A stretch of 64,000 nt of DNA, taken from IMG/VR virus record IMGVR_UViG_3300025108_000022, positions 38,648-102,647 of that record. The stretch is one strand, 5' to 3'. Below are positions 34,547 through 62,451 of this stretch, piece after piece. The stretch comes from a virus. Both the position numbers and the translations under genes were made by a program. The notes beneath the pieces were generated by a model, which worked only from the letters and a program-made list of their open reading frames with translations, made no database searches and was not told where the DNA came from. Position 1 is the first letter of the stretch. Every line of letters starts with the position of its first letter.

Positions 34547-34704
34547 TGATTTGGAGTTTGACATTTGCGATAATAACAGTGGTGTGTATTTTTTTGATTT
34601 ATGAGGTATTCAACCTTGTCCAAATACCACCCGAAAACGACGGTGACGAAGAGGCTGAACGCCAAGCAATTATCGCTTCAATGTCCCGTCAGCATTTGAG
34701 GTGA
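34543..34704 (+). CDS. 53-aa single-pass membrane protein (not in ORF track)
   Basis: MMIWSLTFAIITVVCIFLIYEVFNLVQIPPENDGDEEAERQAIIASMSRQHLR; overlaps both neighbours (ATGA, GTGA). Confidence 0.6.
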   Translation: MMIWSLTFAIITVVCIFLIYEVFNLVQIPPENDGDEEAERQAIIASMSRQHLR

Positions 34705-36089
34705 AGCGTTTGTTAAATAGCCCCGAAGCATTCGATCAAGCGTGGTCGATCATGAAGGGCATTGTTTTCAACGGTCAGTATTTTGAGGATATTGACGAAA
34801 TGGATCCTATGGTGGTTGAAGCCCTTCGCATGTTTAACCAAGACAAAGAAGCCAACCCTTTGCCCGAACCACCGTTTCAAGCAAAGGGGCGCATAGGGAA
34901 ACCGTTCAAGGCCATGAGGGATGCTCGTTTGGCGGGCATAGACCATCAACCTATTTTTGACGCTATGCCGGGATTCACCGATTCCGAGAACAACATGCTC
35001 TCAACCTTCATCAATTGGGAGGGCGGAAAAACGAGCGAAATGCCAAAGTTCCGTGCGATGGCTCGGCATTTGGGCGATTGGGAACGACCAGTGGAGCCAA
35101 TGACGGGAAGTGGGTCTTTCGTGTTGGGTATGAATCGGGGAACGGGGTTGATGAATGACATGAACCCCGACATCGTGAATGTTCACCAACAGGCAAAGAG
35201 AGGTTTGGGTGATGTAGCAATTCCTCAATCCCAAGAGGCTCATAACACAGCCATTGACGCTATGAACGCTATTCGTGAAAGAAGGGATGTTGACGGCGAA
35301 GAACTTTCGCAACAAGAACTCACTGACCTTGCTCGGCTGTTTGTGGGCAACAACCTGTCTTCTTACCGAACTGATTGGCGAGGGGTGGACTGGGCTGGGC
35401 GCACAGAAGTCAACGAGAAGGGCAAAACGGTGCCGATGGGAGGGTTTGATGGGGACTACGCTGTCCCTTATACAGAAGGCCGTGTTCCCTATCAGTCTTG
35501 GCGTGATAACAACGAAGAGGTTGAGCGTCTATTCCAATTGACAGAACAACAACAAGGCAAGACTCTCAAAGACAGGGCGAATGCGGCTGGACTGACTGAC
35601 GCTGAACGCAAAAAGGTTGGCAATTGGCGGGCTTTCCCTCACCATGCTGGTTCAATCAACCTTAACTCCTATGCTCCACGCTACAAAGGGGTGGACATCC
35701 GACACGGCGACGCTTTTGACCTCCACGAATTGTTGCGACCGACTGATTTGTTGTATCTAGATCCGCCGTATATTGGCCGTGATATGGATTATGGGGCGAC
35801 CTCATTACAGCGTCAAGGAAGAACATACGACGATTTCCAAAGAAAAATCCTGCAAATGGGTCGTGAACACGAAGGCCCATCCATCCTATCCAATTACATG
35901 TATGCGAAGGATCAACATCAGCCCCTTGAACAATACATCAAGGATGTCATAGATTCCGGCTACACTATTTTCCCGTGGCTACGCTCACCGAAAGCAAACA
36001 ATTTCCCACAGGTGGAGATGTTCGGATTGAAAGGGATTGAAGGGCCGATACCCGGTTTAGCACGAAGCACCCAAACCAAATTGTATTGA
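34701..36089 (+). CDS. Dam-family (alpha-class) DNA adenine methyltransferase
   Basis: FINWEGGK, VEPMTGSGS (motif I), MNDMNPDIVN, LLYLDPPY (motif IV), ILSN; start may be TTG 34710 after GAGGTGA. Confidence 0.85.
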   Translation: MKRLLNSPEAFDQAWSIMKGIVFNGQYFEDIDEMDPMVVEALRMFNQDKEANPLPEPPFQAKGRIGKPFKAMRDARLAGIDHQPIFDAMPGFTDSENNMLSTFINWEGGKTSEMPKFRAMARHLGDWERPVEPMTGSGSFVLGMNRGTGLMNDMNPDIVNVHQQAKRGLGDVAIPQSQEAHNTAIDAMNAIRERRDVDGEELSQQELTDLARLFVGNNLSSYRTDWRGVDWAGRTEVNEKGKTVPMGGFDGDYAVPYTEGRVPYQSWRDNNEEVERLFQLTEQQQGKTLKDRANAAGLTDAERKKVGNWRAFPHHAGSINLNSYAPRYKGVDIRHGDAFDLHELLRPTDLLYLDPPYIGRDMDYGATSLQRQGRTYDDFQRKILQMGREHEGPSILSNYMYAKDQHQPLEQYIKDVIDSGYTIFPWLRSPKANNFPQVEMFGLKGIEGPIPGLARSTQTKLY

Positions 36090-36317
36090 TTATTTGCGGT
36101 ATTGGCGAATCCACTGATCCATCAAATCGTTGAAACGATGTGGCTTTTCCGCTTTATCGGGGTCGGGTGGTTGAGGTTCCATCAAATACATTTGGACTTT
36201 GCGACCACACATTTTACAACAAGGCTTTCGCATAGCACTGGTGAACATTTTATGATTCTCACCGTCCGTGCCAAAACACCCGCCGGAGCGACATTCCCAC
36301 CATTTACCCATGCTCAT
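36090..36317 (-). CDS. Small Zn-finger-like protein
   Basis: WECRSGGC...CCKMCG; abuts the convergent MTase stop. Confidence 0.5.
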   Translation of the reverse strand: MSMGKWWECRSGGCFGTDGENHKMFTSAMRKPCCKMCGRKVQMYLMEPQPPDPDKAEKPHRFNDLMDQWIRQYRK

Positions 36318-36883
36318 TCCTCTTCGTCAGTGATAGGCCACGAAACATCGGCATAAGGCTTCTTTCCGGTTTTCGTGTCAAGGAAACGAACTCGCTTGTT
36401 CTTTTTCACAGCATGATACAGATCATAGCACATCATAGCGTCTTCAATGGCCCACCTTGCACAGTTTATGTGCTGACCTTTCATCCATGAAACACCTTTC
36501 CTCATTCGTGAAATCAGTTCAACAGGGAGGCTACGCACCCCGTTCCAGCGAGCAAGATCATACAAGTCAAACCGCTTGCCTTCGTTTTGGAGAACAGGGG
36601 CACTGGCCTTTTTTACGGCTCTCAACACATCAAAGGTGCCCTCACGGAACTTGCCGTGCAGGTTATGGCCGACCGCTTCATTAAGTATGTCATAATCAAA
36701 GGATTCAATGTCCCTCAATTCAACCTTGAGGGATTTTTCACTCATTGAAATGTCGGTATAAACGATGGCCTTTTGCCCATCCCATGTGGCGATTAGCAGG
36801 GGTTTCAGTTCACCCCGCCATCCATCATCCTCAAGGGCTGTGTCAAACAACACGGCAATTCCCATCATACTCAAGCACCCCAT
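36314..36883 (-). CDS. DEDD/RNase H-like 3'-5' exonuclease-fold protein (divergent)
   Basis: VGHNL...FDVL (ExoII-like), LYDLARWNG, WAIEDAMMCYDLY (ExoIII-like). Confidence 0.5.
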   Translation of the reverse strand: MGCLSMMGIAVLFDTALEDDGWRGELKPLLIATWDGQKAIVYTDISMSEKSLKVELRDIESFDYDILNEAVGHNLHGKFREGTFDVLRAVKKASAPVLQNEGKRFDLYDLARWNGVRSLPVELISRMRKGVSWMKGQHINCARWAIEDAMMCYDLYHAVKKNKRVRFLDTKTGKKPYADVSWPITDEEE

Positions 36884-38459: not shown

Positions 38460-39167
38460 TTAGGCATTGGTAATTTTGACTCTCTCTTTCACCACAGCCG
38501 ACTCGCTGTTTAGTGCCTCAACAATGGACTTAGCACGGACTTTGCCAATGCCTTCAAGTTTCATCAGTTCTTTCACAGAAGCCCCAGCAATTTCAGCGAT
38601 TGACCCGAAAGAAGACAGCAAACGCTTTGCGATAGCCTCACTACATCCGATACCACGGAGTCCGTCAATCCGTATATCCTCGCTTGAGGTGCGACGGAGT
38701 GTGCGGTATGTGCTAATGCTCCCAAGAGTGCCGTCCTTTTCACATCGTTTCACGATCCAGTAGGCGGCGGCGGAGGGAGTAGGGAATTGCATGATTGTTA
38801 AGTCAAAGTCAACATCAAGTCTTGACAATGAACCTAAGAACTGCGCTTGAATGCGGGCGTATGGTGTCCTGTTGCCTCTTCGCTTGAGGCTTGCCACATA
38901 GGCGTCCAGTTTGCCATGAATAACCAATATCATGCGGTTGTAGTTCTCATCCATGTTCTCCAATTGGTGAGCAAGGTGTCCACTTTGGAGGGATTGCATG
39001 TAGTCGGCAATACTCTTAGCCTCAATGCCGATTTGACCGTAGCAGTAGTCCGTGATCAAGTTTTGGTTAAGTTCCCACTTGATTTTTGCCTTGTCGGCTT
39101 GTTTTTTGACGGCTTCTTCAAGGCCAGATCGTTCACGATTGTCAATGTATAGGATTTTTTCAACCAT
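38460..39167 (-). CDS. ERCC4/XPF-family structure-specific nuclease with HhH motifs
   Basis: IDNRE, IGIEAKSIADY...SLQSGHL, C-terminal GIGCSEAIAKRLL and LEGIGKVRA. Confidence 0.85.
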   Translation of the reverse strand: MVEKILYIDNRERSGLEEAVKKQADKAKIKWELNQNLITDYCYGQIGIEAKSIADYMQSLQSGHLAHQLENMDENYNRMILVIHGKLDAYVASLKRRGNRTPYARIQAQFLGSLSRLDVDFDLTIMQFPTPSAAAYWIVKRCEKDGTLGSISTYRTLRRTSSEDIRIDGLRGIGCSEAIAKRLLSSFGSIAEIAGASVKELMKLEGIGKVRAKSIVEALNSESAVVKERVKITNA

Positions 39168-39816: not shown

Positions 39817-40890
39817 TCATACTCCGCCACTCCTGTCATAGAACGGGCAACGACCGATACAATACCCCTTTTGGTGAAGGGTTCGGCACGATGGTGATTT
39901 GTAGTAGCGATCCACATTATGGTTGATGTATGATACGGTGATGTCCTCTTTGTAGTCCGACCAATCCAAGTCCCGAATGAACGACACGATGGTGTCTTTG
40001 ATGCTACGGTTGGTGGTTGGCGATGAACGAGGGGGTCTTGCGAAGGAGCGTAGCCTGTCCTGCAAATACATGGCAAGATACACTCTCGCTTCGTGAGTAG
40101 GGTTGCTCCCCTTTTCACAGGCGGCTGACGCCAAGCAGGGGAGGATAGTGAGGTTGCCGACCTTCTTCATGTCCACATCCACAGGGTCAGCCTCAAATGG
40201 TGCATCGGGATCTCGCTTCTTGGTCTTGATAACCATACCTTTCGTGCCGTATGGCTTCATGCCCCCATGAGGCTCGTCGGCTTTGGCTATGACTGACGGC
40301 CAACCTGCTTCAAGGTCTTCGGTTGTCAGCGGCATACCCCATAGCCCCCGTTTGAAATTGTATGTGTTAGGAATGCGAATGTGCCTGTCGGGTCGGAATG
40401 AAACCACTGGATCGAGAGTGGACAAGTCCCACTTCTTAACCCAGCCGTCAATCATTTTACGACCAGTGAGCAAGAAGTCACCGAGTTCAATTGAAGTCGG
40501 TTCGTATGTTTTGTCAAGGCTGACCCAAATATGAACACCGCCTCCGGTGAACCACATAGCGTGCCGCCAGTCGTTTGACACAAGGTGCTGATGAAGCGCA
40601 TAGACTTCTTTGAAGCACCTGTCGCCCGCTTGGGCGGCTGATACACTCTCTTTCATGGCTCGTTCATAGTCCATGTCAATGACGAAGTGTGGGATCACAG
40701 CCGTGTTGTATTCACCACGGTTCCCTTTCGTCTTTAATTGACGGAAACCATAGACCGTAGTGGTGAGGTTGTCAGCACCGTTCGTGGCGGCGACATAGCG
40801 TTGCAGTTCGTCCATGTTATGCACCACTTTCCGCTTTCGCATATCCACCTCACGGGGAAAATGTCGGAACATGTGGGTGCTTCGTGTCAT
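39817..40890 (-). CDS. Archaeo-eukaryotic primase, PriS catalytic domain fused to PriL-like Fe-S domain
   Basis: FVIDMDY, FTGGGVHIW, RHIRIPNTYN; C-terminal LPCL...HEARVYL...SPSC...GYCIGRC. Confidence 0.85.
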   Translation of the reverse strand: MTRSTHMFRHFPREVDMRKRKVVHNMDELQRYVAATNGADNLTTTVYGFRQLKTKGNRGEYNTAVIPHFVIDMDYERAMKESVSAAQAGDRCFKEVYALHQHLVSNDWRHAMWFTGGGVHIWVSLDKTYEPTSIELGDFLLTGRKMIDGWVKKWDLSTLDPVVSFRPDRHIRIPNTYNFKRGLWGMPLTTEDLEAGWPSVIAKADEPHGGMKPYGTKGMVIKTKKRDPDAPFEADPVDVDMKKVGNLTILPCLASAACEKGSNPTHEARVYLAMYLQDRLRSFARPPRSSPTTNRSIKDTIVSFIRDLDWSDYKEDITVSYINHNVDRYYKSPSCRTLHQKGYCIGRCPFYDRSGGV

Positions 40891-40899
40891 AATACTCAC
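40877..40899. repeat. Direct repeat copy 1 flanking beta-MTase (21/23 identical to 42205-42227)
   Basis: GTGCTTCGTGTCATAATACTCAC vs GTGCTTCGTGTCATATTGCTCAC. Confidence 0.9.
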
Positions 40900-42218
40900 C
40901 ATTCAAAGAGCGACCTTTGCGCCCGAAGGACACGCACTTTTTGTTCCTCTATTTCAACCCAATGTGAAATCCGATGGCGAGCGATGCCGATGTATTCTTC
41001 TTCACGCTCAATGCCAATGAAATTGAAGCCCTCCACATTCGCCGCAATACCAGTAGTTCCACTCCCCATGAACGGATCTAAGACGACTCCGTTGGGAGGC
41101 GTGACGAGTCGGCATAGGTATTTCATCAAATTAACGGGCTTAACCGTTGGGTGTATGTTTTTTCGGTATTCAACTTTGTTGTGTAAAGACGAAGGCTTCG
41201 CTTCGTCGTTTTCGTGCTTGAAATCCTCACTCCCACGCTTCAATTCGGCTTTTGCTTGATTGCTCCACGCAACAAGTTGCGGTTCTTTGTCTTCCAAACC
41301 AAAGTCCTTTTCCGCTTTGCTCGCTTTAGCGCAGTAAAAGAATCGGGCGGCTGAACCATTTCCCATCTCGGTGCGAACCCCGTTGTCCACATTCCCCCAT
41401 CCCCCTTCGTAATGTTCACCCATAGCCACATTGGACTTCTTTGGGAACGCACCACCATTGGATTGAGGGAACAGGTTCACGACTTCATCCGAGCCATCGT
41501 GAATGAAATTGGCGGGGAATCTCCCTAAAGCGTGTTGATCCTGTGCTTCTTTGTTGTCTTTCATGCCAAAATTGACAACGGCATTCTCCCTGTTGTTGCT
41601 ACCAATGGATAATTTCTCGTTGGTGGCTATTCGGCAACCGTCAATGTTCAAACCGCCTGTGCCATGCTCAAGCACATTCTCAACGATAGTGCCGATAAGG
41701 GGCTTGCGGGCGACCACGATAGGCTCATGGGCAGGTTTGAGGGATGAACCCCACCCCTCCCATTTTTTCGCTTCGTCGGTTTGTGGGTTCTCCGCTGTTT
41801 TCTCTTTCATTTGAAATCCCAATGGCCCTTTCACTGTTCGTGATGAAGGGAGGACTTCTCCCTCAACATAGCGACCCGCTTTTTTGTCAATGTTCTTACT
41901 GACGGACTGACTTTTTGGGAAGCCCGACCCATAGACCCACATGATTTGATCACGGATTTCAAAGCCAGCGTCCTCTATGTTCACGGCCATGCGGTGATAT
42001 GTGCGAGAACCAGCAAATGATAGCAAATATCCTCCCGGTTTCAATACTCGGAAAGCCTCTTTCCACATCTCAACCGAAGGCACATCGTAGTCCCACTTCT
42101 TGCCCATGAAGGACAGTCCGTATGGTGGATCGGTGACGATTGAGTCAACGCTGTTATCCTCCATTTTCTCAAGTATAGCGATACAATCTCCGTGTATTAG
42201 TTCTGTGCTTCGTGTCAT
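40896..42218 (-). CDS. Beta-class N6-adenine/N4-cytosine DNA methyltransferase
   Basis: LIHGDC, DSIVTDPPY, HPTVKPV, VLDPFMGSGTTG, FIGIERE. Confidence 0.92.
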   Translation of the reverse strand: MTRSTELIHGDCIAILEKMEDNSVDSIVTDPPYGLSFMGKKWDYDVPSVEMWKEAFRVLKPGGYLLSFAGSRTYHRMAVNIEDAGFEIRDQIMWVYGSGFPKSQSVSKNIDKKAGRYVEGEVLPSSRTVKGPLGFQMKEKTAENPQTDEAKKWEGWGSSLKPAHEPIVVARKPLIGTIVENVLEHGTGGLNIDGCRIATNEKLSIGSNNRENAVVNFGMKDNKEAQDQHALGRFPANFIHDGSDEVVNLFPQSNGGAFPKKSNVAMGEHYEGGWGNVDNGVRTEMGNGSAARFFYCAKASKAEKDFGLEDKEPQLVAWSNQAKAELKRGSEDFKHENDEAKPSSLHNKVEYRKNIHPTVKPVNLMKYLCRLVTPPNGVVLDPFMGSGTTGIAANVEGFNFIGIEREEEYIGIARHRISHWVEIEEQKVRVLRAQRSLFEW

Positions 42219-42227
42219 ATTGCTCAC
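42205..42227. repeat. Direct repeat copy 2 flanking beta-MTase
   Basis: See 40877-40899. Confidence 0.9.
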
Positions 42228-43165
42228 TCCAAGTGTGTTTGATAACGAGGACAGAACTCTTTGAGAGCGCACCACGGGTCGCAAATTGAGTATTGGCGAC
42301 CGGGTGCAATAAGTGGGAACATGCTGATGTCGCCGTCGCCCTTGTAGCGTCGGTGCATACGGACGAGGTTTTGCATATCAGCCATCATCAAGCCCAGTTC
42401 TTTGACACGAACTGCCTCCACCAAGCGGAACATTTCAGCGTCTTCGGTATCGGTGCCCTTGACACCCTTAGTGTGATCCCACCCCCAGTGGGTGATTTGT
42501 GCCGAAGGGTCAGCCTTTCGCAACGCCCACACATAAAACGCCATTTCCTTTCTCATAGCCTCGTATTTGTATTTGGCTTCTTTCCAAGCACCTGTCTTGA
42601 GTTCGTGAATGTGTAGTGTCCCGTCGGGGTTAGTGTAAATGCGGTCAATAAAACCGTTGATATGTATGCGTTGGGGTTGTCCGTCAACCTTAATTTCAAC
42701 CACGCAATCAATCTCCATCTCGTTGCCAGTCGGCAGGAAGTGTTCGGGGTCGCTGTTGTTGAAGCGGTCAATCTCCTTCACACGGAAACGGTCAATGTGC
42801 AGATCTTCATCCAAAAAGAACGAATCCTGTGCCGAACGGATTTCCTTTGAAGTGGGGAAGCACTCACGGAAATAGCCATCAAGGTCAGTTTCGGCACTTG
42901 CCTTTTCAATATCCACCCTGTCATAGAATCCTTCAACAGCGTCGTGGACATTGGTGCCCCGTAGCATGTTGTCGTTCTGTGGTTCCTTCATACCAACGAT
43001 TCGTTTTAGGCCGTATTGTTGAGCGCAAAAGGTGGACTCGCCCAGCGAGGACTTGCTCATACGGAGAATGATGTTGTCGGGCATACCGGGGTGCCAATCA
43101 TAACATGAGAACAAGTCCTCATGGTTCGGCACAGGGTATGGGCGTGGTGGCTTATGGGTAATCAT
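42224..43165 (-). CDS. Cas4-like PD-(D/E)XK exonuclease (solo, replication-associated)
   Basis: N-terminal Cys (FCAQQY), RGTNVHD, GFIDRI, IHELKTG, EMAFY, C-terminal CDPWCALKEFCP. Confidence 0.8.
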   Translation of the reverse strand: MITHKPPRPYPVPNHEDLFSCYDWHPGMPDNIILRMSKSSLGESTFCAQQYGLKRIVGMKEPQNDNMLRGTNVHDAVEGFYDRVDIEKASAETDLDGYFRECFPTSKEIRSAQDSFFLDEDLHIDRFRVKEIDRFNNSDPEHFLPTGNEMEIDCVVEIKVDGQPQRIHINGFIDRIYTNPDGTLHIHELKTGAWKEAKYKYEAMRKEMAFYVWALRKADPSAQITHWGWDHTKGVKGTDTEDAEMFRLVEAVRVKELGLMMADMQNLVRMHRRYKGDGDISMFPLIAPGRQYSICDPWCALKEFCPRYQTHLE

Positions 43166-44122
43166 TCACCACCACTCCTTTGGTTCGGGCTGTTCGTCTT
43201 TCTTGACCCATTCAAATTGCTCAAGGACTGACTTGTTTCCGGGGTCATTGATTTCGCATGACATGGCATCGTCGCTGTGTAGTTCCTCTTCCCCTCCCCA
43301 CATTTCAACAATACCCTGTTGATCGTCGTGGTAAATGCTCACCGCATCACAGGAATTGCATTCAAATGGCCGTCGGCCTTCGGGCACGAATCCATCGGCG
43401 AACTTCTGTTCCATTTCAGCAAGGGTGTTGTATTGGTTCATCCCGTGCTTCATTGGGGAAACCTTTCGGCTTTCCTCGTCCCAGTGCTTGGCTTGCGCCC
43501 ATAGATCTGGATATTTTTTCCATAGAACATACCACGATGAAGTGGGTTGTTTGATGCAGTGAAAGCACCCCAAGCGTTGAAAATTGACATACAATGGGTT
43601 CACCATGTCAAGTTTGTCAAGGTATTTGAAAGCGTCTTCTTCTGTCCAGCCCCACTCAATGAGAGGATAACGAATGCCGTCCTCCTTTGCGGTCTTTGAC
43701 ACACGCCTCTTCTCGTCTATGGCGATACCGACATACTTGATCGTGCATTCCTTAGTCGCCCGTTGAAGAGGATAGAGTTTGGCTTCTCTCGCCCAGTAGC
43801 AAGGATAAACGATGAGGGGTGCCCCACGAACATTTCCTTCGTTTTTGCCCCTCGTCACCTTGCCATAGAACCACTCGTTCCATGACTTCTTTGAGAACAC
43901 ATGTTCAATGTGCAATCCTTTTTCGGGGTATTTTTCTTGAATGTATTTTTCAACATGCTTGATGTAGTCGTAAAGTTCGGGGAACTCAAAACCAGTGTCA
44001 GCGAATACAATGCGGTGAATCGGATAGTTTGGATCGTCCAGTTCAAGCATCCTCAATAACATAGCCGTTGAATCCTTTCCGCCGCTGAACGACACCATCG
44101 CAATATCCTGTTTCTCTTCCAT
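43166..44122 (-). CDS. PAPS reductase/DndC-like PP-loop protein
   Basis: VSFSGGKDSTAML, FADTGFEFPE, RYPLIEWGW, RLGCFHC. Confidence 0.85.
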   Translation of the reverse strand: MEEKQDIAMVSFSGGKDSTAMLLRMLELDDPNYPIHRIVFADTGFEFPELYDYIKHVEKYIQEKYPEKGLHIEHVFSKKSWNEWFYGKVTRGKNEGNVRGAPLIVYPCYWAREAKLYPLQRATKECTIKYVGIAIDEKRRVSKTAKEDGIRYPLIEWGWTEEDAFKYLDKLDMVNPLYVNFQRLGCFHCIKQPTSSWYVLWKKYPDLWAQAKHWDEESRKVSPMKHGMNQYNTLAEMEQKFADGFVPEGRRPFECNSCDAVSIYHDDQQGIVEMWGGEEELHSDDAMSCEINDPGNKSVLEQFEWVKKDEQPEPKEWW

Positions 44123-44125
44123 GTT

Positions 44126-46405
44126 TTACCACCACTCTTGAGGCTTTGAGCCATCTGCCGTCGGCTGTCGCCAACCCATCGCCTCAAAGATGAGGGAAAC
44201 GGGGGCTATAATTTGCTTTTCTATCACAGCCGTGAAATCTATGTCTAATTCTTCAAGTTCTTCGGGGGTTCGGTATGCTTCGATCCCCTTTGTAGTGTAT
44301 GTGTGGGGGACACCATCGCCCTTCTCAAATCGGTTGTCGGGGTTCAGTCGGTTGTATGCCTTAGCGGCTCCTTGAAACCCACCCTGCTGTCCGTATTTTT
44401 CCGGCTTCTTGCCTAAGCGAGAGCGCATAACAAGAGCCTCACGCTTCACCACAGTTCGCACGCCGGAAATCCATGTGTTCACCAAATCCCGAATGTCGTC
44501 TTCACTGGCGTCCTCACGGCAAACGGCCTCAAAGGCCACTTCTTGAATGCGTTTGGTGATCTGTGCGGCATTGGACTTCTTCATCTCAAAGCCAGTGCAG
44601 TGTAGTCCCTGCTTCGGCCATATCACCCAGCCGAAGTTCCTGTTCTTCTTGGCGGCAACCCATGACTTCATCAGTTTCTCATACTCCACCACGAATCGCT
44701 CGCTGTTGAACTCTTTCTGTATCGTTCGTGTTAAGGCATCGGCTATCTCATGGCCGTCGTTGTCGCCGATTCCGATGTATGCGCTGTCGGTGTGTCCGGC
44801 CAATGGCTCATAGCCCATCTCTTCGCACACATCCATGAGGCGTGAAACCAGTGATCGACCAACATAGGTGATAGTAGCGGCAACAGTTCTGTGTGCTTCA
44901 CCATGACCTGTGTGTCCCATGAGGCCATATACGCTGGCGGCGGCACGCTTGAAGGCTAATTGCAGTGTGTTGAAGCCAGCGTATTCCGATGAACCCGGTT
45001 CGTGCTTCTTCATCTCGGCCTTCGCTTCGTTGCGAGCATCGGCCAGATCCATTTGCAGTTGGGGCAATACCCCAACCCTCTCTTGACTCCAATGTGTGCC
45101 GTTGCCGACCGCACGGGTATTCTCCCCTGCTTCGTGCCGAAGCATTTCGGGACTGATGTTGTCAGCCCGCTGAATCTCGGCATACATGGCACGATAGTCA
45201 AAGACAGCGACATTGTTATGTCGGCCTGTTTTCGGCTCGGCTACAAAGCCACCGCCGTATGAATCGCCAGTTCCCTTCTTGTATGTCCCTGTGGGTGCCG
45301 CCCATGTCGCCCTTCGGCGTAGCAATCCTCTTGCGAAGCGGCTCACTGTAAATACAGAACCAAACGATACGCCACAGACTCGTTGTAAAGCCATGAAGAA
45401 TCGGGTGACATGATATTCCCTGTCAAGGCGATCTGTGAGTAAAACATCAGCACGGTGATAGTGCAGGAAATCCTCAAAATGGTTGAGCCAAAGGTCGTGA
45501 TGTGATATTCCTTTGGTGTCTATCTTCCATAATTCGGGGTTATCGGGGAACGCCACCTTGCCAACAGCACCCAGTCGTCGGTCGGACAATTGACCGTTTC
45601 CTGCGTCCCGCCACACACGCTCAAAGCCGTGGTTCCTGTCAGCGAGGTCAACGGTCATGCGACCGGGTATCACTTGAGTCCCGTCGTCATAGACTCCACT
45701 GCGTGGGAGGTGGATCATTGGTGGTGAAGTGCTGAACTCCGAGAGAGGCGACATCCAGTCAAAGCCAATGTCATGGTGTTTGTAGCGTTCATACATTTTA
45801 GGCCAGTCGGCACGGTTGCCCGACCATGTGGTGATAAGGTCGGGATCTAATTCCTCAAACGCCAATGCAAATGCTTCAAGCATTTCCTTCTCGGAACGGT
45901 ATGGGTTGAGGACACCCTCATAGGTTGGATGCCAAGACCACTGCTGGACAACCTCACCGTTCGTGGTGAAGCCCATAGCAGTGAGTTCTCCTTGCTCGTT
46001 CCATTCAAGGTCAAAGCCACCAGCCCGAACCATGTTCGGGAACCAGTCGGGAATATCCTGCGGATCAATGCTGTCAATAGCATACCTGTCGGGGAAGTGA
46101 ATGTCAGCCTCCCATGTTTCGTCGCAAAGTTCTCGCATAGGTTTGACATCTTTCGGACTCGGTGCGACAATTGAAATCAATTCCCTGCCGTCCAAAGACT
46201 TGGCCGTCCTTTCACCAGCATACCAGCCAACGAACCGTTCGTCAAATAACTCGGTGATTCGTGGTGTATCGCTGTCAGCGGCCACATAGAAGTATGGTCG
46301 GAATGTCCCATCGTGAGCCTCCATCACCACACCGTTTTCATCACGGTATCGCAAATAGATCGAAGGGCACTCCGAATCATCGGTTTCGTATGTTTGGATA
46401 ATCAC
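44126..46405 (-). CDS. polB: Family B DNA polymerase
   Basis: FRPYFY, ExoI FDLEW, ExoII WSGNRADW, ExoIII YHRAD; polymerase motifs VFDYRAMYAE, KRAAASVYG, AGHTDS, KKNRN, GFEMKKS. Confidence 0.92.
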   Translation of the reverse strand: MIIQTYETDDSECPSIYLRYRDENGVVMEAHDGTFRPYFYVAADSDTPRITELFDERFVGWYAGERTAKSLDGRELISIVAPSPKDVKPMRELCDETWEADIHFPDRYAIDSIDPQDIPDWFPNMVRAGGFDLEWNEQGELTAMGFTTNGEVVQQWSWHPTYEGVLNPYRSEKEMLEAFALAFEELDPDLITTWSGNRADWPKMYERYKHHDIGFDWMSPLSEFSTSPPMIHLPRSGVYDDGTQVIPGRMTVDLADRNHGFERVWRDAGNGQLSDRRLGAVGKVAFPDNPELWKIDTKGISHHDLWLNHFEDFLHYHRADVLLTDRLDREYHVTRFFMALQRVCGVSFGSVFTVSRFARGLLRRRATWAAPTGTYKKGTGDSYGGGFVAEPKTGRHNNVAVFDYRAMYAEIQRADNISPEMLRHEAGENTRAVGNGTHWSQERVGVLPQLQMDLADARNEAKAEMKKHEPGSSEYAGFNTLQLAFKRAAASVYGLMGHTGHGEAHRTVAATITYVGRSLVSRLMDVCEEMGYEPLAGHTDSAYIGIGDNDGHEIADALTRTIQKEFNSERFVVEYEKLMKSWVAAKKNRNFGWVIWPKQGLHCTGFEMKKSNAAQITKRIQEVAFEAVCREDASEDDIRDLVNTWISGVRTVVKREALVMRSRLGKKPEKYGQQGGFQGAAKAYNRLNPDNRFEKGDGVPHTYTTKGIEAYRTPEELEELDIDFTAVIEKQIIAPVSLIFEAMGWRQPTADGSKPQEWW

Positions 46406-47202
46406 GCCGATGCCCCGCCTTCTTCTTGGCGGGGAGCGATAACGGCTGTTGTTCCAAAATCACCGTCGGGTGATTCGTGGCGAATGAGCAAGGGGCTGTC
46501 GTTGCCTCCGTGCAAATAGACAGTCCCATTCCCCGGCATAGCCTTGAGAGCGTCCATTAGCCACTTTCCAAACCAATTGAGAACACCTTCGCTTTCATCA
46601 GCGAGGTTGTTTGTCAATGGTTCAAGTGTTGATTCCATGCGGATTGAATCACGCTTGACGCTAAGGGTCAGCCCAGCGACATTTGATTCAAGACAGAATA
46701 GCGCACCGTTCTGTATGGATTTCCCAGTGTTTCGCATTTGTTGAAAACGCTGTCCTTCAAACGATTGAGCGAAGGTCAGTTCACCCGAACCGAACTTGTT
46801 GAAGTCGTTGGCTCTTGAATCATCAATCAGTTTCACGACTTGTTCAACGCCAGCCTGTGAAGAGGCCGAATTGACCGACGGCATAGTGAAGGAAGTGCTT
46901 GAGCCAGCGACATGGATCTTGCCATCGTCGTGAAGAACAATTTTCACTTCTTCGTTTCCAATGCCACATTCCTTGATGAGTGAAGTGAAGGTGGATAATT
47001 GGCCGAGCGCAATTGACCCAGCGTCAACACATCCCTCTCCTTCACGGAAAGAAGTGTGCCGTTGAATGAAATACGCTTTGTCAAGAGTTCCTGCGGAACC
47101 CAAGCCTTCTTCACTGACATTGACGACCAAATCATCCATGCCCTCAAAGCCCTTGAGGAAACCCAGCAGGTTGTGTTGAAGCATACGGAAGCCGACCATC
47201 AA
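46402..47202 (-). CDS. PCNA-like sliding clamp
   Basis: About 266 aa adjacent to PolB; C-terminal DSPLLI...TAVIAPR typical of PCNA. Confidence 0.7.
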   Translation of the reverse strand: MMVGFRMLQHNLLGFLKGFEGMDDLVVNVSEEGLGSAGTLDKAYFIQRHTSFREGEGCVDAGSIALGQLSTFTSLIKECGIGNEEVKIVLHDDGKIHVAGSSTSFTMPSVNSASSQAGVEQVVKLIDDSRANDFNKFGSGELTFAQSFEGQRFQQMRNTGKSIQNGALFCLESNVAGLTLSVKRDSIRMESTLEPLTNNLADESEGVLNWFGKWLMDALKAMPGNGTVYLHGGNDSPLLIRHESPDGDFGTTAVIAPRQEEGGASA

Positions 47203-48401
47203 GCATCACCTCTTGGGACATTGAAGTCGCCAGCGGAGATCTTAGGCCATCCATGCCAAACACCACCGTCGTCGTTCCTCTCAAAGAGCAGGACACGACC
47301 CGACGCTTGGAGTGAAGTGCGGTCAGCGATAATCACAGCGTAGCCACGGACAACACCAGTGAGTTCACCGGATTCGTTGCGTTCCTCTTCAAGTTCAGTG
47401 TGAATGACTTGTTGCAGGTGCCCTTCTGTGCCCTTGAGCCACTTCGGGGTGTCTTGCCCAGCAAGTTCGTTGCCCGACGAGTCGTAGCCCGGTTTCATGT
47501 GGGTAATGACATAGCAGTGAACGCCACCACGACATAGTTCACGGAGAGCGACCATAGCCGTTTGATAGCGAGTAGCACGAATGTTCCAATTGAAGCGGCC
47601 AATTTGAGTGGTGGCCTTCTTGCCCGAAACAGCGATACCGTCAACACCAAGATCCAAATCATCAACCTTCATGCAGGTTTCAGTGATATGTAGCCAATGG
47701 TCGGCTCCATCAAACACCACAGTCTTGAGGTATGGTTTTGGCATCTTGCCGTGTTCAGCGAAGTATTCATTCTGTGCCTCCATTTGAGCCTGTGCGGTCT
47801 TGAGGATGTCCACAGTTTGTTGAAATGTTGCTGGGAAATCGTATGGGACACGACTGTCACCATAATTGAATACCCACGGATTGAGAACGACGAGGTTTTC
47901 AGCCTTGTCAGCGTGGTGAGCCGCCTTCGTAGTTTCCCCACCGAGATCGAAGTCCAAGTGCCAAATCTCGGCACCGTTTTTGACTTCTTGTGGAGTGAGG
48001 CTGTCAAGCACCATACCAGTCTTGCCGGTCTTTGGTGCCCCTGCGATACCACACATAACGAATGCGGGTGGTGCCTTGATAACACGACGAGCGTTGCGAA
48101 TCATGTTAGCAATTGTCGGGTTGACTCTTGACAGGTGGTTTGCGGTGGCCGGTGGAGAAGGCTTCTTGGCCTTCTTTGGAGCAGGTGCGGGTGGTGCCTC
48201 ATCAACAGGTTCCTCCATCTCCGGTTCTTCGTGTTGAACAACAGGTGCTTCATCAACCAGTGCCTCAATAGGAATGTCTTTCATTTCCTTCTTCGGTGCA
48301 GGTTTTGGTGCTGGGGTCTTCTTAGATCCGCCAGCCTTCTTGGTCGGTGGTTCGTAATTGCCCTTCTTTTCCTTGAAGCCGTCTAAGAATCCTGTTCCCA
48401 T
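47199..48401 (-). CDS. RecA-superfamily ATPase (RadA/Sak4-like recombinase)
   Basis: Walker A GAPKTGKT, LDFDLG, Walker B TVVFDG, YVITH; Lys/Pro-rich disordered N-terminus. Confidence 0.7.
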   Translation of the reverse strand: MGTGFLDGFKEKKGNYEPPTKKAGGSKKTPAPKPAPKKEMKDIPIEALVDEAPVVQHEEPEMEEPVDEAPPAPAPKKAKKPSPPATANHLSRVNPTIANMIRNARRVIKAPPAFVMCGIAGAPKTGKTGMVLDSLTPQEVKNGAEIWHLDFDLGGETTKAAHHADKAENLVVLNPWVFNYGDSRVPYDFPATFQQTVDILKTAQAQMEAQNEYFAEHGKMPKPYLKTVVFDGADHWLHITETCMKVDDLDLGVDGIAVSGKKATTQIGRFNWNIRATRYQTAMVALRELCRGGVHCYVITHMKPGYDSSGNELAGQDTPKWLKGTEGHLQQVIHTELEEERNESGELTGVVRGYAVIIADRTSLQASGRVLLFERNDDGGVWHGWPKISAGDFNVPRGDA

Positions 48402-49741
48402 CAGTAATCACCTCCGGCACTGAAACCGTCAAGGTTGCCCAAATCGTTGCTGGACGCACTTGGCTTCTTTGCAGGAATTGACTTGTGAGGGACGGCATAG
48501 ATACCGTGTGCTTGCACCTTGACGACTTCATCGCCGTCTTGGTTGGTGTAAGACTCGGTGCGACCGACAACCCAAACACGGGAACCCTTTGCGAATGGGA
48601 GCCATTCGCCCGCCTTGAGGACGGAGAGAGCGTTGTGGTTTTCCTTTACCGTTCCCGACACACCAATGCCGATACGGGCGTTGGGGTTTTCACGGCGGAG
48701 AACTTGAGTGCTGATAGACAACCAGTAATCACGGCCTGTTGGATCCCATTGGGACTCACGGCCTTCGTGGTTGATGTCCATAACACCACCAACGATGCAG
48801 ACCATTGGGCCGTCATAGCGTTGGACACCGTTGCGGTCAGTGTATGACTCACGGCGGTTGTCAAGGTGGTGTGAGAGCAAATCCTTCACATTCACTGCGG
48901 CGTCGCCAGTAGTGGTGAGGTATTGTTCCGGCTTGAAGAGGTTGGTTGCAGTGTCCCGCTTCTTTCCTTCGGGCACCCAGTCCAAACCATAGGTCGCACT
49001 GGTGTTGCTGATGGAGAGTGTTGGGCCAGCCCCGTTGTAGCCTTCGGGGTCAAAGTTCCCCTTGACGGTGATCGGTTGCCACAGGTTCCAGTCGTGCGTA
49101 GCACCTTCAAAGGCACCCTCAACAGTGATGAGCATTGGGCCTTCTTCAAGGAACTTGTCTTTGGAGTTCCCATTGAACGCCCAAATGGACTTCATGGCCG
49201 TAGCACGCTGTGGGGTGTTGTCAGCCTTGAGCATACAGATTGAAAGTTTCTCGTTGAGAGGGATAACCCAGTTCGGGTTCTCGTCAGCCGAGTCCTTTGA
49301 CACGAATGTCCCAGTGCTGTGTTCGGCTCGCCAAACACCGTCAGCACGGAAAGCACGACCAATACCGACTTTGTTGCCGTTGTATTGGAAACCGTTGTTG
49401 ATTGCACCCGACAGGTCAGCAGTGGCGATGTCAATTGCCGCCTCACGCTTGCGCTTCATCAAGTCAAAGCGTCGGTCAAATCCGATGAACATACCGACCC
49501 ATTCTTCGCCAGATCCGCCACCGCCACCGCCACTTGGGCGGTTAGCGCACACGAACATGTCAGCGAAGTCGTTGTAGTCGTCGTCGTCCAAGCCTTGCGC
49601 TGAACCACCACTGGCTTCCCACATGTCGGGGAATGTTTCGTTCATCCACGAACCAAATGAGGCAAGTGCTTCTTCCGCACCCACACCAAGTATTTTAGCC
49701 GCTTCATCAATGCAATTGTTTCCGATTTCTCTTTCGCTCAT
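48401..49741 (-). CDS. Putative RPA/SSB-like OB-fold ssDNA-binding protein
   Basis: Between RFC and recombinase; OB-like C-terminus (KGSRVWVVGRT...VQAHGIY), acidic aromatic tail. Confidence 0.5.
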   Translation of the reverse strand: MSEREIGNNCIDEAAKILGVGAEEALASFGSWMNETFPDMWEASGGSAQGLDDDDYNDFADMFVCANRPSGGGGGGSGEEWVGMFIGFDRRFDLMKRKREAAIDIATADLSGAINNGFQYNGNKVGIGRAFRADGVWRAEHSTGTFVSKDSADENPNWVIPLNEKLSICMLKADNTPQRATAMKSIWAFNGNSKDKFLEEGPMLITVEGAFEGATHDWNLWQPITVKGNFDPEGYNGAGPTLSISNTSATYGLDWVPEGKKRDTATNLFKPEQYLTTTGDAAVNVKDLLSHHLDNRRESYTDRNGVQRYDGPMVCIVGGVMDINHEGRESQWDPTGRDYWLSISTQVLRRENPNARIGIGVSGTVKENHNALSVLKAGEWLPFAKGSRVWVVGRTESYTNQDGDEVVKVQAHGIYAVPHKSIPAKKPSASSNDLGNLDGFSAGGDY

Positions 49742-49745
49742 ATAA

Positions 49746-50708
49746 TCAACCTCTTTGTTTGTAATCCCCAGTCATAGCATGGAGGAATAGGAGATCACTG
49801 GCTGTCCAGTCGGGGCTTCTTGCCGCCCACTGTCCCAGTATCATAAGGTGCTTCATCGCCGTAGCGGTGTCCACCGTATCGTCTTTGTATGCCGAGAGGA
49901 TTGCTTGGTGCATACCCTCAATTATTTCATCACGGGACATACCGTGCGTGTTGACAAGCGATTCCGCACTGTCAATTAAGTCGGAGTGAGGGCCAGCGAG
50001 AATGCCCTTGTAATAGGACTGTGCTGGCTCAAAGTCAGTGAGTGTCAAATTGATGAGGGCGTCCTCATCGGTTGGATCGATGGTTTGCATGGCTTTCAAA
50101 CAAGCCCGCATATCGCCTTTGTATTTCGTGATAAGCGACGGGAGAGCCGCAACCCACGCATCGGGGAAGTTCTCTTCACCAATCACACGACCGAGGAAAC
50201 CTTCGGCATCGCCTATCTCCAACGGGTTGAAGGAATAGGCAGGGAGTCTTGAACGGAGAGCAGGGATAATACGACCAATACGGTTGCATGTGAGAATCCA
50301 AAGCACATGGGTGCCCGTTTCCTCAATCAATTGGCGCATAGCGTCCTGTGCGTCTTTGGTGAGTCCATCGGCCTCATCAAGAAGAATGACCTTGAAGTCG
50401 TGGCCGACAGCCTTCTGTTCAGCGAGGCTCTTGAGCCTATCACGAACAAACCCAATGCCTCTATCATCGGAGGCGTTGAACACATGAAAGTTATTGGCGA
50501 AGGCATCACCCAGCAGATCCTTAGCGATAGCACGGCCACCGCTGGTTTTACCAGTTCCCGGTTTGCCGAAGAATATGACTCCACCACAGCGTAGTGTGTA
50601 TTTATTTTGAGCGTGGACAACCCATGTCGGAACATCGGCCTTCAATTGCTCAAGGCCGACCATTCCTTGTAGTGTGTCGGGTCGGTGGGTTTTCCATAAC
50701 TGTGTCAT
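49746..50708 (-). CDS. rfcS: Replication factor C small subunit (clamp loader)
   Basis: WKTHRP, GKPGTGKT, FNASDDRGI, LLDEADGLTKDAQDAMR, ALRSR, GDMR. Confidence 0.92.
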   Translation of the reverse strand: MTQLWKTHRPDTLQGMVGLEQLKADVPTWVVHAQNKYTLRCGGVIFFGKPGTGKTSGGRAIAKDLLGDAFANNFHVFNASDDRGIGFVRDRLKSLAEQKAVGHDFKVILLDEADGLTKDAQDAMRQLIEETGTHVLWILTCNRIGRIIPALRSRLPAYSFNPLEIGDAEGFLGRVIGEENFPDAWVAALPSLITKYKGDMRACLKAMQTIDPTDEDALINLTLTDFEPAQSYYKGILAGPHSDLIDSAESLVNTHGMSRDEIIEGMHQAILSAYKDDTVDTATAMKHLMILGQWAARSPDWTASDLLFLHAMTGDYKQRG

Positions 50709-50749
50709 AATATCACGCTCGGTGGGTTTCAAGCCAACAGGGGCTTGGG

Positions 50750-53140: not shown

Positions 53141-53436
53141 TCCTCTTCCTTTGCGATAATGTCGTCCATTATTCTCTCATGCGAGTCAAACAAAAGGCAC
53201 GACCAGTGCTTGAGAAGTGTCGGTTCATCACACCGGAACACATGACTGAAATGGTGAGTCAAAGCGTTCCTCTTATAGATCGAATCGTCTTCATAGGTGA
53301 GAGTATAGACATACAAGCCCTTCCCGTTTGGGTATTCGTCAGTGGTGATGTTGATTACCTCACATTGGGTCATTCGTGCTACATCACCAGTGTGATTGTT
53401 CGCCCATCGGTCGCCAATTTCAAATCCTGCTGTCAT
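53137..53436 (-). CDS. Hypothetical protein
   Basis: 99 aa, ATGA-coupled on both sides. Confidence 0.5.
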   Translation of the reverse strand: MTAGFEIGDRWANNHTGDVARMTQCEVINITTDEYPNGKGLYVYTLTYEDDSIYKRNALTHHFSHVFRCDEPTLLKHWSCLLFDSHERIMDDIIAKEEE

Positions 53437-53900
53437 TCCTCACCATCTCCTTCGTCAAAATATGCTGGATCGACGGTCTTATCACGCCATGCGCTCACGA
53501 AGTCGTCCCATGCGGCTTGGTCGGGATAAAGGCGCATAATCTCTATTTTGTAGCCCCATATCCAGCGTCGCATCTCCCTTCTCCGGTCAAGCGGCAAGAC
53601 CTCAACGGACTTGCCCCACAGTTTCTTGGTGGCTCGCTTGACAGCCTTAATACCGACACGGTTGCCCGACAGTTTAGCACAAATGTATAGGCAATCCACC
53701 AGCAGTGGACGGGGCGCACGCCCCACCTTGCCGACGACCTGTTCCCATAGTGCAAATGCGTCCTCTTGAATGGTGGTGAGTAAATCACCAGTGTTTTGAT
53801 CGTGAACCCGCCAGCCTTGCTCCGGCAGTTCGTGGACAAGGGCCAGCAATTCAAAGCGTTTGATGTCAAACCACGGTTCTGTGTATGCACGCACCATCAT
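53433..53900 (-). CDS. TFB/TFIIB-like single cyclin-repeat protein
   Basis: GRAPRPLLVDCLYICAKLSGNRVGIKAV matches the TFB repeat pattern GRxPxxxAAAxLYIAxR. Confidence 0.55.
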   Translation of the reverse strand: MMVRAYTEPWFDIKRFELLALVHELPEQGWRVHDQNTGDLLTTIQEDAFALWEQVVGKVGRAPRPLLVDCLYICAKLSGNRVGIKAVKRATKKLWGKSVEVLPLDRRREMRRWIWGYKIEIMRLYPDQAAWDDFVSAWRDKTVDPAYFDEGDGEE

Positions 53901-54217
53901 TCACCACCTCGCTTAAGAGTTTCAGCAACGGGTTGCATTTTATCATCAACCTTGTCAAACAGATCTGAAATGTTGTCCTTGTGGAGTAGTTCATTGAGCC
54001 TGTCCCTCAATTCAAGTGCTTCTTCTTCTGTCAAGTAAAAGCCCTTCTTAGTGTAGCCGACATGGCCGTTCCTTGAGGGGGCCACACGATTAACACGGAT
54101 GTTCATTATTCTTTCATCACGGGTGTCTTGTGTCAAAATGTGGACTTCTTCGCCAGCAGTGAATGTGGTTTGGATAGTCGCATGGTGGACTTGGTTGTAG
54201 CGGTTCTCGTTGCTCAC
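53897..54217 (-). CDS. PC4-like ssDNA-binding/transcription cofactor
   Basis: IMNIR...YTKKGFYLTEEEALEL resembles PC4 VDIR...PTKKGISL. Confidence 0.6.
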   Translation of the reverse strand: MSNENRYNQVHHATIQTTFTAGEEVHILTQDTRDERIMNIRVNRVAPSRNGHVGYTKKGFYLTEEEALELRDRLNELLHKDNISDLFDKVDDKMQPVAETLKRGGE

Positions 54218-61261: not shown

Positions 61262-61446
61262 TGAACTCCCTCCCCGTCCACATCGTCCATCGTGGCTGGT
61301 CGGATGTCAAGACCCCACGGGGACTCACAGCCCCCACAGAAGAGAACAGGCGTGTTGCCCGATGGTTGATAGATTTTCAGTCGTTCGCCACAGCCTTTAC
61401 AGCATGGGTATTCGTTGAATCCGTGAATCGTCCACTGTTTGCTCAT
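61258..61446 (-). CDS. Zn-finger micro-protein
   Basis: CCKGC...FCGGC. Confidence 0.5.
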   Translation of the reverse strand: MSKQWTIHGFNEYPCCKGCGERLKIYQPSGNTPVLFCGGCESPWGLDIRPATMDDVDGEGVQ

Positions 61447-61985
61447 GCGCTCACCTCGTTCGGTGTGCAACCGTAGCGGATCTGGTCAATCAATATGTCA
61501 ATGCGCTTGTCCTCGTCCTCTCGTTCGTGGTCGTAAATGCACCACACAGCATAGACTGTGCTTGAACCGAGGTCAGCGTCGTCTATGATGTATTGAGAGG
61601 GCTTCTCGTCATACTGGGAGAGTCCTGTCATGTATGCGAATCGGTCAGCACTGTCAAGTGGGACAACAATGCGTGATGAACCCACAGCGAATGGTGGAGA
61701 GGCATTCGTGTATTCCTCTCTCCAATTTTTCCTTTCCTGTTCAGTCAGTCGTTCAACGCAAATCGTGGAGCCATGAATGTCCTTCATCATCACTTCACGA
61801 TTGTTGGCCTTTTGGTGCATGTCCTTGAGCATGTTTTCCCAGCCAGCAATCGTGTTGTTGATCTGCTGGTATTGGTCTTCGGTCAGTTCTCCTGTCGCCT
61901 TCATGGCGTGTGCTGAACAGCACGCCGCCTCAAGGTCGGATAGCGTTTGACTCATCTCGTCAGTCATTCGTGTTGAATCGCTCAT
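61443..61985 (-). CDS. Hypothetical protein
   Basis: 180 aa bounded by the 17-nt repeats. Confidence 0.55.
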   Translation of the reverse strand: MSDSTRMTDEMSQTLSDLEAACCSAHAMKATGELTEDQYQQINNTIAGWENMLKDMHQKANNREVMMKDIHGSTICVERLTEQERKNWREEYTNASPPFAVGSSRIVVPLDSADRFAYMTGLSQYDEKPSQYIIDDADLGSSTVYAVWCIYDHEREDEDKRIDILIDQIRYGCTPNEVSA

Positions 61986-62411: not shown

Positions 62412-62451
62412 TTTGATTCCCCGTTGTTCAGTCCACACAGTCCGGCCTATA

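Follow-up and report, generated by a model that had tools for sequence, protein, structure and literature searches.

The question that this locus raises is why two neighbouring genes end in the same way. In the 64,000-nucleotide stretch of the virus record IMGVR_UViG_3300025108_000022 that was analyzed here (positions 38,648 to 102,647 of the record, called the window below), the family B DNA polymerase (PolB) and the gene that follows it, which encodes a protein of the 3'-phosphoadenosine 5'-phosphosulfate (PAPS) reductase superfamily, both finish in Glu-Trp-Trp (EWW) and a stop codon. A preliminary description of this DNA had offered two explanations, namely an insertion that duplicated the end of polB together with its Shine-Dalgarno (SD) signal, or selection for a common tail that docks on a sliding clamp, and it had suggested DNA modification as the role of the second protein. 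As we show below, the shared tail is best explained as a C-terminal docking peptide, apparently selected at the protein level, whose codons are also used as an SD. The elements on which the argument turns are the following:

44126-46405, minus strand: PolB, 759 amino acids (PF00136, 96 bits), with the terminal KPQEWW at 44129-44146.
43166-44122, minus strand: PAPS-reductase-superfamily PP-loop enzyme, 318 amino acids, phage type and SspD-like (PF01507, 53 bits).
44069-44086, minus strand: PP-loop motif SGGKDS of this enzyme (residues 13-18), with S13 to S18 each at least 90% conserved in a 54-sequence alignment.
43169-43372, minus strand: disordered C-terminal extension of the same enzyme (residues 251-318, about 65 amino acids), with W305 and the terminal EPKEWW (43169-43186).
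43163-43180, minus strand: dual-coding junction AAGGAGTGGTGGTGA-ATG, where the K-E-W-W-stop codons double as the SD-like AAGGAG/GGTGA of the Cas4-like gene.
46402-47202, minus strand: virus-encoded PCNA-type sliding clamp, 266 amino acids, recognized by its AlphaFold2 (AF2) fold and Foldseek, and the proposed receptor of the tail.

The C-terminus of PolB reads ...DGSKPQEWW and is followed by TAA, and that of the PAPS-reductase gene reads ...EQPEPKEWW and is followed by TGA. After the PolB stop come AAC and the ATG of the PAPS-reductase gene, whose own stop is immediately followed by the ATG of the Cas4-like gene. Both gene ends carry the exact 10-mer GAGTGGTGGT (ACCACCACTC at 43168-43177 and at 44128-44137), and by hand comparison 43166-43183 and 44126-44143 are identical at 14 of 18 positions. 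The two endings, the repeat, the wider match and the geometry of the junctions, all of them reported previously, were thus reproduced from the sequence. With E at 7.1% and W at 2.0%, the chance that two of the approximately 70 open reading frames (ORFs) of the window end in EWW is about 2e-6, and the pairing is not a chance event. The 10-mer is found three times in the window, with 0.21 expected. It should be noted, however, that the DNA match adds almost nothing to the peptide match, because Trp has one codon and E-W-W-stop fixes 9 of the 10 bases of GAG-TGG-TGG-T, leaving free only the choice between GAG and GAA. Beyond the 10-mer, 4 of 8 positions agree, which is no better than what two similar hexapeptides would give. 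The 10-nucleotide repeat is a consequence of encoding E-W-W-stop and holds no independent signal of duplication.

The evidence that carries the docking reading comes from the relatives. The PolB homologs considered, whose identity ranges from 29% to 98%, all (46/46) finish in [L/Y/H/W]-[W/F] or a close variant of it, with endings such as PQEWW, PVSLW, PKDLW, AKALW, PKKYW, PKSHW, PKSHF, PLF, KYF, QWL and GWI, and the tailed homologs differ in codons, spacers and downstream genes. A census was made on 1340 non-redundant ORFs from 89 magrovirus-like loci, with six tail families: PolB, the D12 Dam methyltransferase (MTase), the PF01555 beta MTase, the PF00145 C5 MTase, the weakly C5-like family f416, and the PAPS reductase. 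The last residue was W or F in 90 of the 100 ORFs of these families and in 21 of the 1178 other ORFs, and no such end at all was found in the PCNA, Cas4, XPF, helicase, RFC, g400 and g446 families of the same loci; among the Cas4-like proteins, the tail was present in 0 of 55 members. The nominal P of 3e-105 overstates the independence of the sequences, which are related, and this kinship has to be counted against our interpretation; nevertheless, six unrelated protein families are involved. The endings within families are equally characteristic. The beta MTases end in LFDW, LFEW, DDWW, LFDF, REWL or KLLW, and the D12 Dam-like relatives in Q-x-x-L-F, being F-terminal in 10 of 11 non-redundant cases (e.g. 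QQRTLF, TQNKLF, MQRRLF). Furthermore, the tails of one genome tend to agree with each other. The window presents EWW, EWW and FEW, the loci L078/L081 combine PLF with TLF, and in L162 the PolB (TQWL), three MTases (AEWL, LGWL, REWL) and the PAPS reductase (IEWL) all share the same ending. Since the tail classes WW, LW and LF follow the virus clades, any co-variation between PCNA and tail is confounded by phylogeny.

Part of the explanation of the tail certainly lies in the DNA, and the observations in this sense weigh against a purely peptide-level account. GGTGA or GAGGTGA is placed 3-6 nucleotides before many starts of the window, and GGTGGTGA is over-represented (13 copies observed, 3.1 expected). 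Most PolB relatives present TGG-TGA, 4-6 nucleotides and ATG, so that the W-stop is itself the GGTGA of the next gene. In 55 of the 99 tail-bearing ORFs, GGTGA straddles the stop (terminal NGG-TGA, that is, at -2 relative to the stop), in two MTase families the terminal W is followed by TGA in 29 of 30 cases, and three PolBs without the tail (L113 and L119 among them) keep GGTGA in another frame. The ends MIGD and GDTV of the PolBs in L113/L119 could be a true loss of the tail or an assembly frameshift. In the window, GGTGGTGA-ATG is read in different frames at two gene junctions, giving ...RGGE-stop at 53901-53908 and ...EWW-stop at 43166-43173; the first of these copies lies at the junction of 53897-54217 and 53433-53900. 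Other gene ends of the window (EESA-stop, EVSA-stop, GGE-stop and EEE-stop) are clearly shaped by the SD, and in a separate region, 61443-63137 on the minus strand, four small genes in series end in EVSA-stop or EESA-stop, as if the SD/stop/start junction had shaped their C-termini.

From these data one could propose that the tail is only a by-product of translation signals and junction recombination, where W-TGA and WW-TGA exist for the sake of GGTGA via TGGTGA and GGTGGTGA, the peptide has no function, and the junctions are inherited per family. A complete explanation of the WW-stop by the overlapping SD had been set beforehand as the result that would speak against the docking tail. We observed that the overlap is real and that it does not fully explain the tail. 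As the consensus is GAGGTGA, a constraint exerted by the SD alone would favour AGG; the families outside the six that place GGTGA across the stop do use mostly R or G (24 of 27: R 19, G 5, with W in 3), whereas among the tail families the count is W 54 to R 1. Besides, 35 of the 99 ORFs have no GGTGA near the stop, and the stop after the terminal W of PolB is TGA in 74% of cases against a background of 70%, with TAA in 10 of the 43 W-ending PolBs, including that of the window. The PolB ends PLF, KYF, SHF, QWL and GWI cannot encode GGTGA, and several of these genes, such as those ending in F, carry a separate GGTGA downstream of the stop. The tails EWL-TAG and EWL-TAA of PAPS-reductase clade 2 are not SD-like either. 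Finally, conservation extends to the residue that precedes the terminal W and to another Trp, located 12 positions upstream, and the restriction of the tail to the polymerase and DNA-modifying enzymes would be left without explanation. For these reasons we consider the by-product account unlikely, and the tail is a feature of the peptide and of the DNA at the same time.

The PAPS-reductase protein shows how the tail is presented. In the AF2 model, residues 1-250 form a core with a predicted local distance difference test score (pLDDT) above 90, and residues 251-318 have a pLDDT of 30-54. Among 25 tail-bearing homologs W305 is invariant and W317 at least 90% conserved, and the linker between them cannot be aligned. 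The homologs fall into three groups: the P[QKE]EWW clade that holds the window protein; clades ending in W-[I/V]-P-P-S-[Q/H]-x(5-8)-x-W-[L/W] or in KELF; and acidic-ended clades together with short bacterial-phage forms ending in CECTE. Outside the window clade, [V/L/I]-x-W-[L/W] is found in three other clades. In a tree of the catalytic core, from which the last 70 residues had been removed, four W-tailed clades surround the tail-less ones and the state of the tail changes at least three times, the window clade being sister (Shimodaira-Hasegawa-like approximate likelihood ratio test, 94) to a large acidic-tailed clade. Since W-tailed clades occupy several positions of the tree, the tail is old in the PAPS-reductase family and is therefore not a local copy of the end of polB. 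When GenBank phages were searched by tblastn with the PAPS reductase at E <= 1e-5, the homologs recovered were all from bacterial phages and none came from a haloarchaeal virus.

This bears directly on the idea that the tail is a physical copy of the 3' end of polB, left by a cassette inserted between polB and cas4, so that the likeness of the two ends would be merely historical. Relatives without the gene do exist: it is absent from many of them, such as L065, L084, L066 and L071, where the PolB stop (an EWW-stop in the first three) abuts the Cas4 ATG. The PAPS-reductase-Cas4 junction of the window and the PolB-Cas4 junction of L084 have 19 of 21 nucleotides in common before the stop, with the same Pro, Glu and stop codons, and, as had been anticipated, recombination between the two EWW-stop copies would give a PolB-Cas4 junction like that of L084. 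In addition, MTase genes of the same operon have clearly been swapped as cassettes with shared ends. Against an insertion, E-W-W-stop dictates 10 of the common bases, and chance can account for the others, given six similar codons; PAPS reductases located elsewhere, one following the primase (L162) and one preceding PolB (L163), also have the tail; the arrangement of clades in the core tree indicates that the tail predates the present gene order; and the adjacency of the PAPS-reductase and Cas4-like genes is common to three divergent lineages, among them PolB-less viruses (52-59% identity). Given this shared adjacency, an insertion is no more likely than a lost PAPS-reductase gene or than the gain or loss of the PCNA-PolB pair. 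The proposal of an insertion that duplicated the polB end is weakly supported, and a cassette origin of the tail seems to us very unlikely.

What could the docking tail bind? The preliminary description had placed a clamp at 46402-47202, and this was borne out: the AF2 model of the protein (pLDDT 93) has the two-domain PCNA fold, and Foldseek matched it to archaeal and eukaryotic PCNAs with probability 1.00, E of about 1e-14 and template modelling (TM) scores of 0.67-0.73. The protein had no match in Pfam, PHROG or NCBIfam, and when its profile was compared with Protein Data Bank sequences the PCNA matches were marginal (E 0.47-1.3). Among the fold matches are solved structures of archaeal PCNA bound to the C-terminal peptides of FEN-1, RFC-L, PolB and RNase HII (3a2f, 1rxm, 1isq, 3p83). 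The conservation of the PolB tail down to 30% identity, its restriction to PolB, DNA MTases and the PAPS reductase, the use of W where an SD-only constraint gives R or G, and a PCNA fold encoded nearby all favour the shared docking tail suggested earlier, for which the clamp is the most plausible receptor. Compared with the canonical PCNA-interacting protein (PIP) box, Q-x-x-[L/I/M]-x-x-[F/Y/W]-[F/Y/W/L], the beta MTase of the window (QRSLFEW) comes close, and the viral MTases end in QxxLF or QxxLFxW. A divergent PolB of 898 amino acids in record G010 (L220:2326-5022, minus strand) ends in QSTMGDWFV, so that the very end of the protein forms a canonical PIP box (QxxMxxWF). The tail is most likely a degenerate, virus-specific PIP-type peptide that would bring DNA-directed enzymes to the clamp.

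Several observations weigh against PCNA as its partner. The endings of the two proteins from which we started do not conform to the PIP box: QPEPKEWW of the PAPS reductase has Q1, P4, W7 and W8, and GSKPQEWW of PolB has P at position 4 and no Q in register. Furthermore, W tails persist on the MTases of viruses that lack both PolB and PCNA, so the tail, if it is a clamp motif, must also work on the host clamp. The association between PolB and the tailed PAPS reductase speaks in favour. The W-tailed enzymes were found in loci with a magrovirus-type PolB in 9 of 9 non-redundant cases, and 13 non-redundant acidic-tailed ones occur in the order g400, PAPS reductase, Cas4 in viruses without PolB; this absence was checked on 7 records (CheckV 44-100% complete), in which PF00136 found no PolB, and the same profile detected the polymerase in two positive controls, which were magrovirus-like records that encode PolB. 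However, the core tree offers only one or two independent contrasts for this link, and in G010, despite its canonical-PIP PolB, the PAPS reductase is acidic-tailed (ending in TDDDN). This counter-example led us to reject a strict rule by which any virus whose PolB has a PIP box would also have a tailed PAPS reductase. As a separate observation, G003 (loci L214-L219; 108,315 bp, CheckV 100%), from a related lineage of viruses, keeps the series g446-g400-PAPS reductase-Cas4-primase-XPF-helicase with an acidic-tailed PAPS reductase; no PolB or PCNA was found in it with family hidden Markov models (HMMs) built from 64 PolB and 62 PCNA members, and a BLAST comparison with the labelled families revealed no RFC. 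A search with the clamp alignment had missed distant magrovirus PCNAs in positive controls; its negative result was set aside and the 62-member HMM was used.

These facts also make room for a docking peptide with a receptor other than the viral PCNA, such as the host clamp, the SSB-like g446, the RadA-like g400, the clamp loader or some other hub. The tails kept where PolB and PCNA are missing and the departures of the PolB and PAPS-reductase endings from the PIP consensus would fit such a receptor, as would the distinct acidic E-V-E-W tail of the g189 family in distant groups. On the other side, a C-terminal clamp-binding peptide is established for archaeal family B polymerases (the complexes 3a2f, 1rxm, 1isq and 3p83), the MTase tails are near QxxLxxW and a related viral PolB bears the canonical box at the same position, and the W tail of the PAPS reductase was seen only where a magrovirus-type PolB is encoded. 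Thus a receptor of another kind appears quite unlikely, and for PCNA, viral and/or host, as the partner of the docking tail we see roughly even chances.

The next question is what kind of enzyme carries the tail. With 53.3 bits against the Pfam gathering cut-off of 22.5 for PF01507, the protein belongs to the PAPS_reduct superfamily. Its best overall profile match was phrog_424, a phage PAPS reductase (E 2e-40), and among the profiles of defence systems the best was SspD of PADLOC (E 3.9e-23, 80 bits, residues 9-239), a profile that has no curated cut-off; BrxP (30 bits) and DndC (20 bits) matched weakly. The protein contains conserved cysteines at C108, C186xxC189 and C255xxC258. Since published work annotates a magroviral homolog as an assimilatory CysH and hence as an auxiliary metabolic gene (AMG) (PMC10160649), and does so for other viral homologs too (10.1101/2021.07.29.453957; PMC13369170), we had to consider that it is a genuine assimilatory PAPS or adenosine 5'-phosphosulfate (APS) reductase which boosts the sulfur assimilation of the host. 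The PF01507 match agrees with that, and the nearest solved folds are PAPS/APS reductases, along with LarE and NcsA. Nevertheless, none of the NCBIfam CysH/APS-reductase models reached its cut-off (NF002537, 28.3 against 154; TIGR02057, 25.3 against 254; TIGR00434, 23.3 against 165; TIGR02055, 17.5 against 235), that is, 17-28 bits where 154-254 are needed. The structural matches have TM scores of about 0.3-0.54 (0.35-0.54 for the reductases) at around 20% identity. The PP-loop is the canonical ATP-pyrophosphatase SGGKDS, and the ECGLH-type C-terminal motif is not in the translation; the closest Cys pair, in ECNSC (residues 254-258), precedes the disordered extension, here 60 amino acids long. 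The gene is placed between PolB and a Cas4-like nuclease; among the 29 window proteins scanned nothing was related to sulfur, the neighbours being PCNA, PolB, the Cas4-like nuclease, an MTase, the primase and XPF. Finally, its C-terminal tail is common to the polymerase and DNA MTases. An assimilatory role looks extremely improbable, and the published annotation of the magroviral homolog is not supported by the tests made here.

The product of 43166-44122 is therefore a stand-alone PP-loop enzyme of the phage and SspD-like type and not CysH, and it probably acts on DNA, a substrate to which the company of its gene points. The idea of DNA modification in place of sulfate assimilation, advanced on the basis of gene order, gains from the failed CysH models, the phage PAPS-reductase and SspD profiles, the SGGKDS motif and the setting within a replication module. 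What counts against the reading is that no desulfurase, no NTPase of the DndD/SspC/BrxC type and no SspB nickase was found in the 64-kb window (with Pfam, and with PADLOC on 9 further proteins). Such an NTPase partner is reported to be required for phosphorothioate synthesis (PMC12914056), and the data from the window therefore do not support placing the enzyme in a known phosphorothioation system.

If these elements are put together, polymerase, methyltransferases and PP-loop enzyme would all dock at the fork through the tail, on the PCNA that the virus itself encodes (46402-47202). There the PP-loop enzyme would modify newly made viral DNA in an adenylation-dependent reaction that possibly inserts sulfur. 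The Trp-stop codons are reused as the GGTGA SD of the next gene. The whole chain, made of a selected docking tail, PCNA as receptor and a DNA-directed enzyme other than CysH, seems to us about as likely to be right as wrong. A bolder version, which we put forward tentatively and hold to be doubtful, is that a virus-specific Trp-tail code, distinct from the PIP box, loads a stand-alone PP-loop/Fe-S enzyme on the viral PCNA, next to the polymerase and several methyltransferases, for a replication-coupled non-methyl modification of DNA (phosphorothioate, a thiolated base or another adenylation-dependent adduct) without Dnd/Ssp partners. Were it true, the viral sulfur AMG that is cited most widely would serve, in this lineage at least, as an enzyme of epigenetic counter-defence. 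Apart from that, the viral cysH/PAPS reductase is routinely counted as a sulfur-cycling AMG both in magroviruses (PMC10160649) and in virome studies of 2026 (PMC13369170), and the shared tail, apparently under selection, with the replication-operon setting and the failed CysH models, constitutes sequence-level evidence for a role on DNA at the fork in at least this branch. For an abundant group of uncultured ocean viruses whose PCNA is highly divergent, the tail would also represent a concrete peptide code of the clamp clients that can be put to the test, and it offers a clean example of dual coding, in which a putative protein docking motif and the ribosome-binding site of the next gene are written on the same bases.

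The genes discussed so far belong to a replication module on the minus strand of the window, which derives from a magrovirus-like archaeal tailed virus. The remaining features, the last of them on the plus strand, are listed here:

49746-50732, minus strand: RFC-like AAA+ protein.
48401-49741, minus strand: g446.
47199-48401, minus strand: g400 (RadA-like).
42224-43165, minus strand: Cas4-like PD-(D/E)XK nuclease ending in QTHLE, with no aromatic tail (PF12705, 65 bits).
40896-42284, minus strand: beta-class N4/N6 DNA methyltransferase ending in AQRSLFEW, with the tail at 40899-40919 in the form QxxLxxW (PF01555, 124 bits).
39817-40902, minus strand: primase of the archaeo-eukaryotic primase (AEP) type.
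38460-39167, minus strand: XPF.
34701-36089, plus strand: D12-class (Dam-like) DNA methyltransferase ending in TQTKLY (PF02086, 41 bits).

PolB, PCNA, the RFC-like AAA+ protein, the AEP-type primase, XPF and the Cas4-like nuclease make up a near-complete archaeal-type replisome, and this gene set agrees with the description of magroviruses as tailed-virus genomes that encode one (PMC5434244). The relatives of the window are uncultured marine viral contigs, and the nearest named viruses are haloarchaeal tailed viruses, with a PolB identity of about 24%. Between the Cas4-like gene and the primase lies a site of MTase exchange (window 40896-42284; L005:3220-4227; L004, L006): close relatives present there the beta MTase (PF01555), a C5 MTase not related to it (PF00145), or no MTase, and both MTases have the same first 26 residues and the LFEW end. 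The protein g446 is probably the SSB named in the magrovirus paper; it and its relatives have short ends (GGDY, GQFD, EQFN, HTEGF) that recall the acidic/aromatic C-terminal tips of SSB. Another protein, of 189 amino acids and without a Pfam match (g189 family; window 36314-36883, minus strand), ends in ITDEEE, and in distant magrovirus groups (e.g. L095, L099, L114) the family ends in E-[V/I]-E-[V/L]-[E/D]-W, which makes a Trp tail of another, acidic kind.

Among known systems, the closest parallel to the docking tail is given by the PIP peptides of archaeal PCNA clients (PolB, FEN-1, RFC-L, RNase HII). As in these, the viral tail is flexible, aromatic-ended and located at the extreme C-terminus of PolB and other DNA enzymes; the cognate PCNA is encoded next door in the window, and the MTase tails and the PolB of G010 fit the consensus. 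Unlike the archaeal peptides, the tails of the viral PolB and PAPS reductase have the form P-x-x-[L/W/Y/H]-[W/F]-COOH, with no Q and no aliphatic residue at position 4, and their terminal residue is usually a Trp whose codon overlaps the SD of the next gene; here, moreover, docking on the clamp is a prediction from sequence. A more distant analogy is found in phage T7 gp2.5/gp4 and in bacterial SSB, where several replisome proteins of one genome have in common a short acidic, aromatic-ended C-terminal tail, through which they compete for a single receptor site. The partners of those tails are the polymerase or SSB clients and no clamp is involved, and both their sequence and the set of proteins that carry them differ from the viral Trp tail.

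For methylation coupled to the clamp behind the fork there is a precedent in Dnmt1, a PCNA-bound MTase (PMC9690074). The viral DNA-modifying enzymes resemble it in their putative clamp-binding motif, which is C-terminal in them and N-terminal in Dnmt1, and they differ from it in that up to four unrelated MTase families and a PP-loop enzyme that is not an MTase carry the tail. With regard to the chemistry, SspD, DndC and BrxP, the PAPS-reductase-domain proteins of phosphorothioation systems, act on DNA (PMC12914056), and the viral enzyme shares with them the PAPS_reduct fold, the canonical PP-loop and conserved cysteines. In contrast with Dnd, Ssp and type 4 BREX, the viral window yielded no NTPase of the DndD/SspC/BrxC type, no SspB nickase and no cysteine desulfurase. 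Finally, like phrog_424, which is widely annotated as the AMG cysH and is often near DNA MTases, the viral gene stands alone in a tailed-virus genome. The bacterial-phage members of phrog_424 have around 260 amino acids, finish in CECTE or CDCTE, and lack both the disordered extension and the Trp tail; compared with these forms, the magroviral branch appears to have added a C-terminal docking module.

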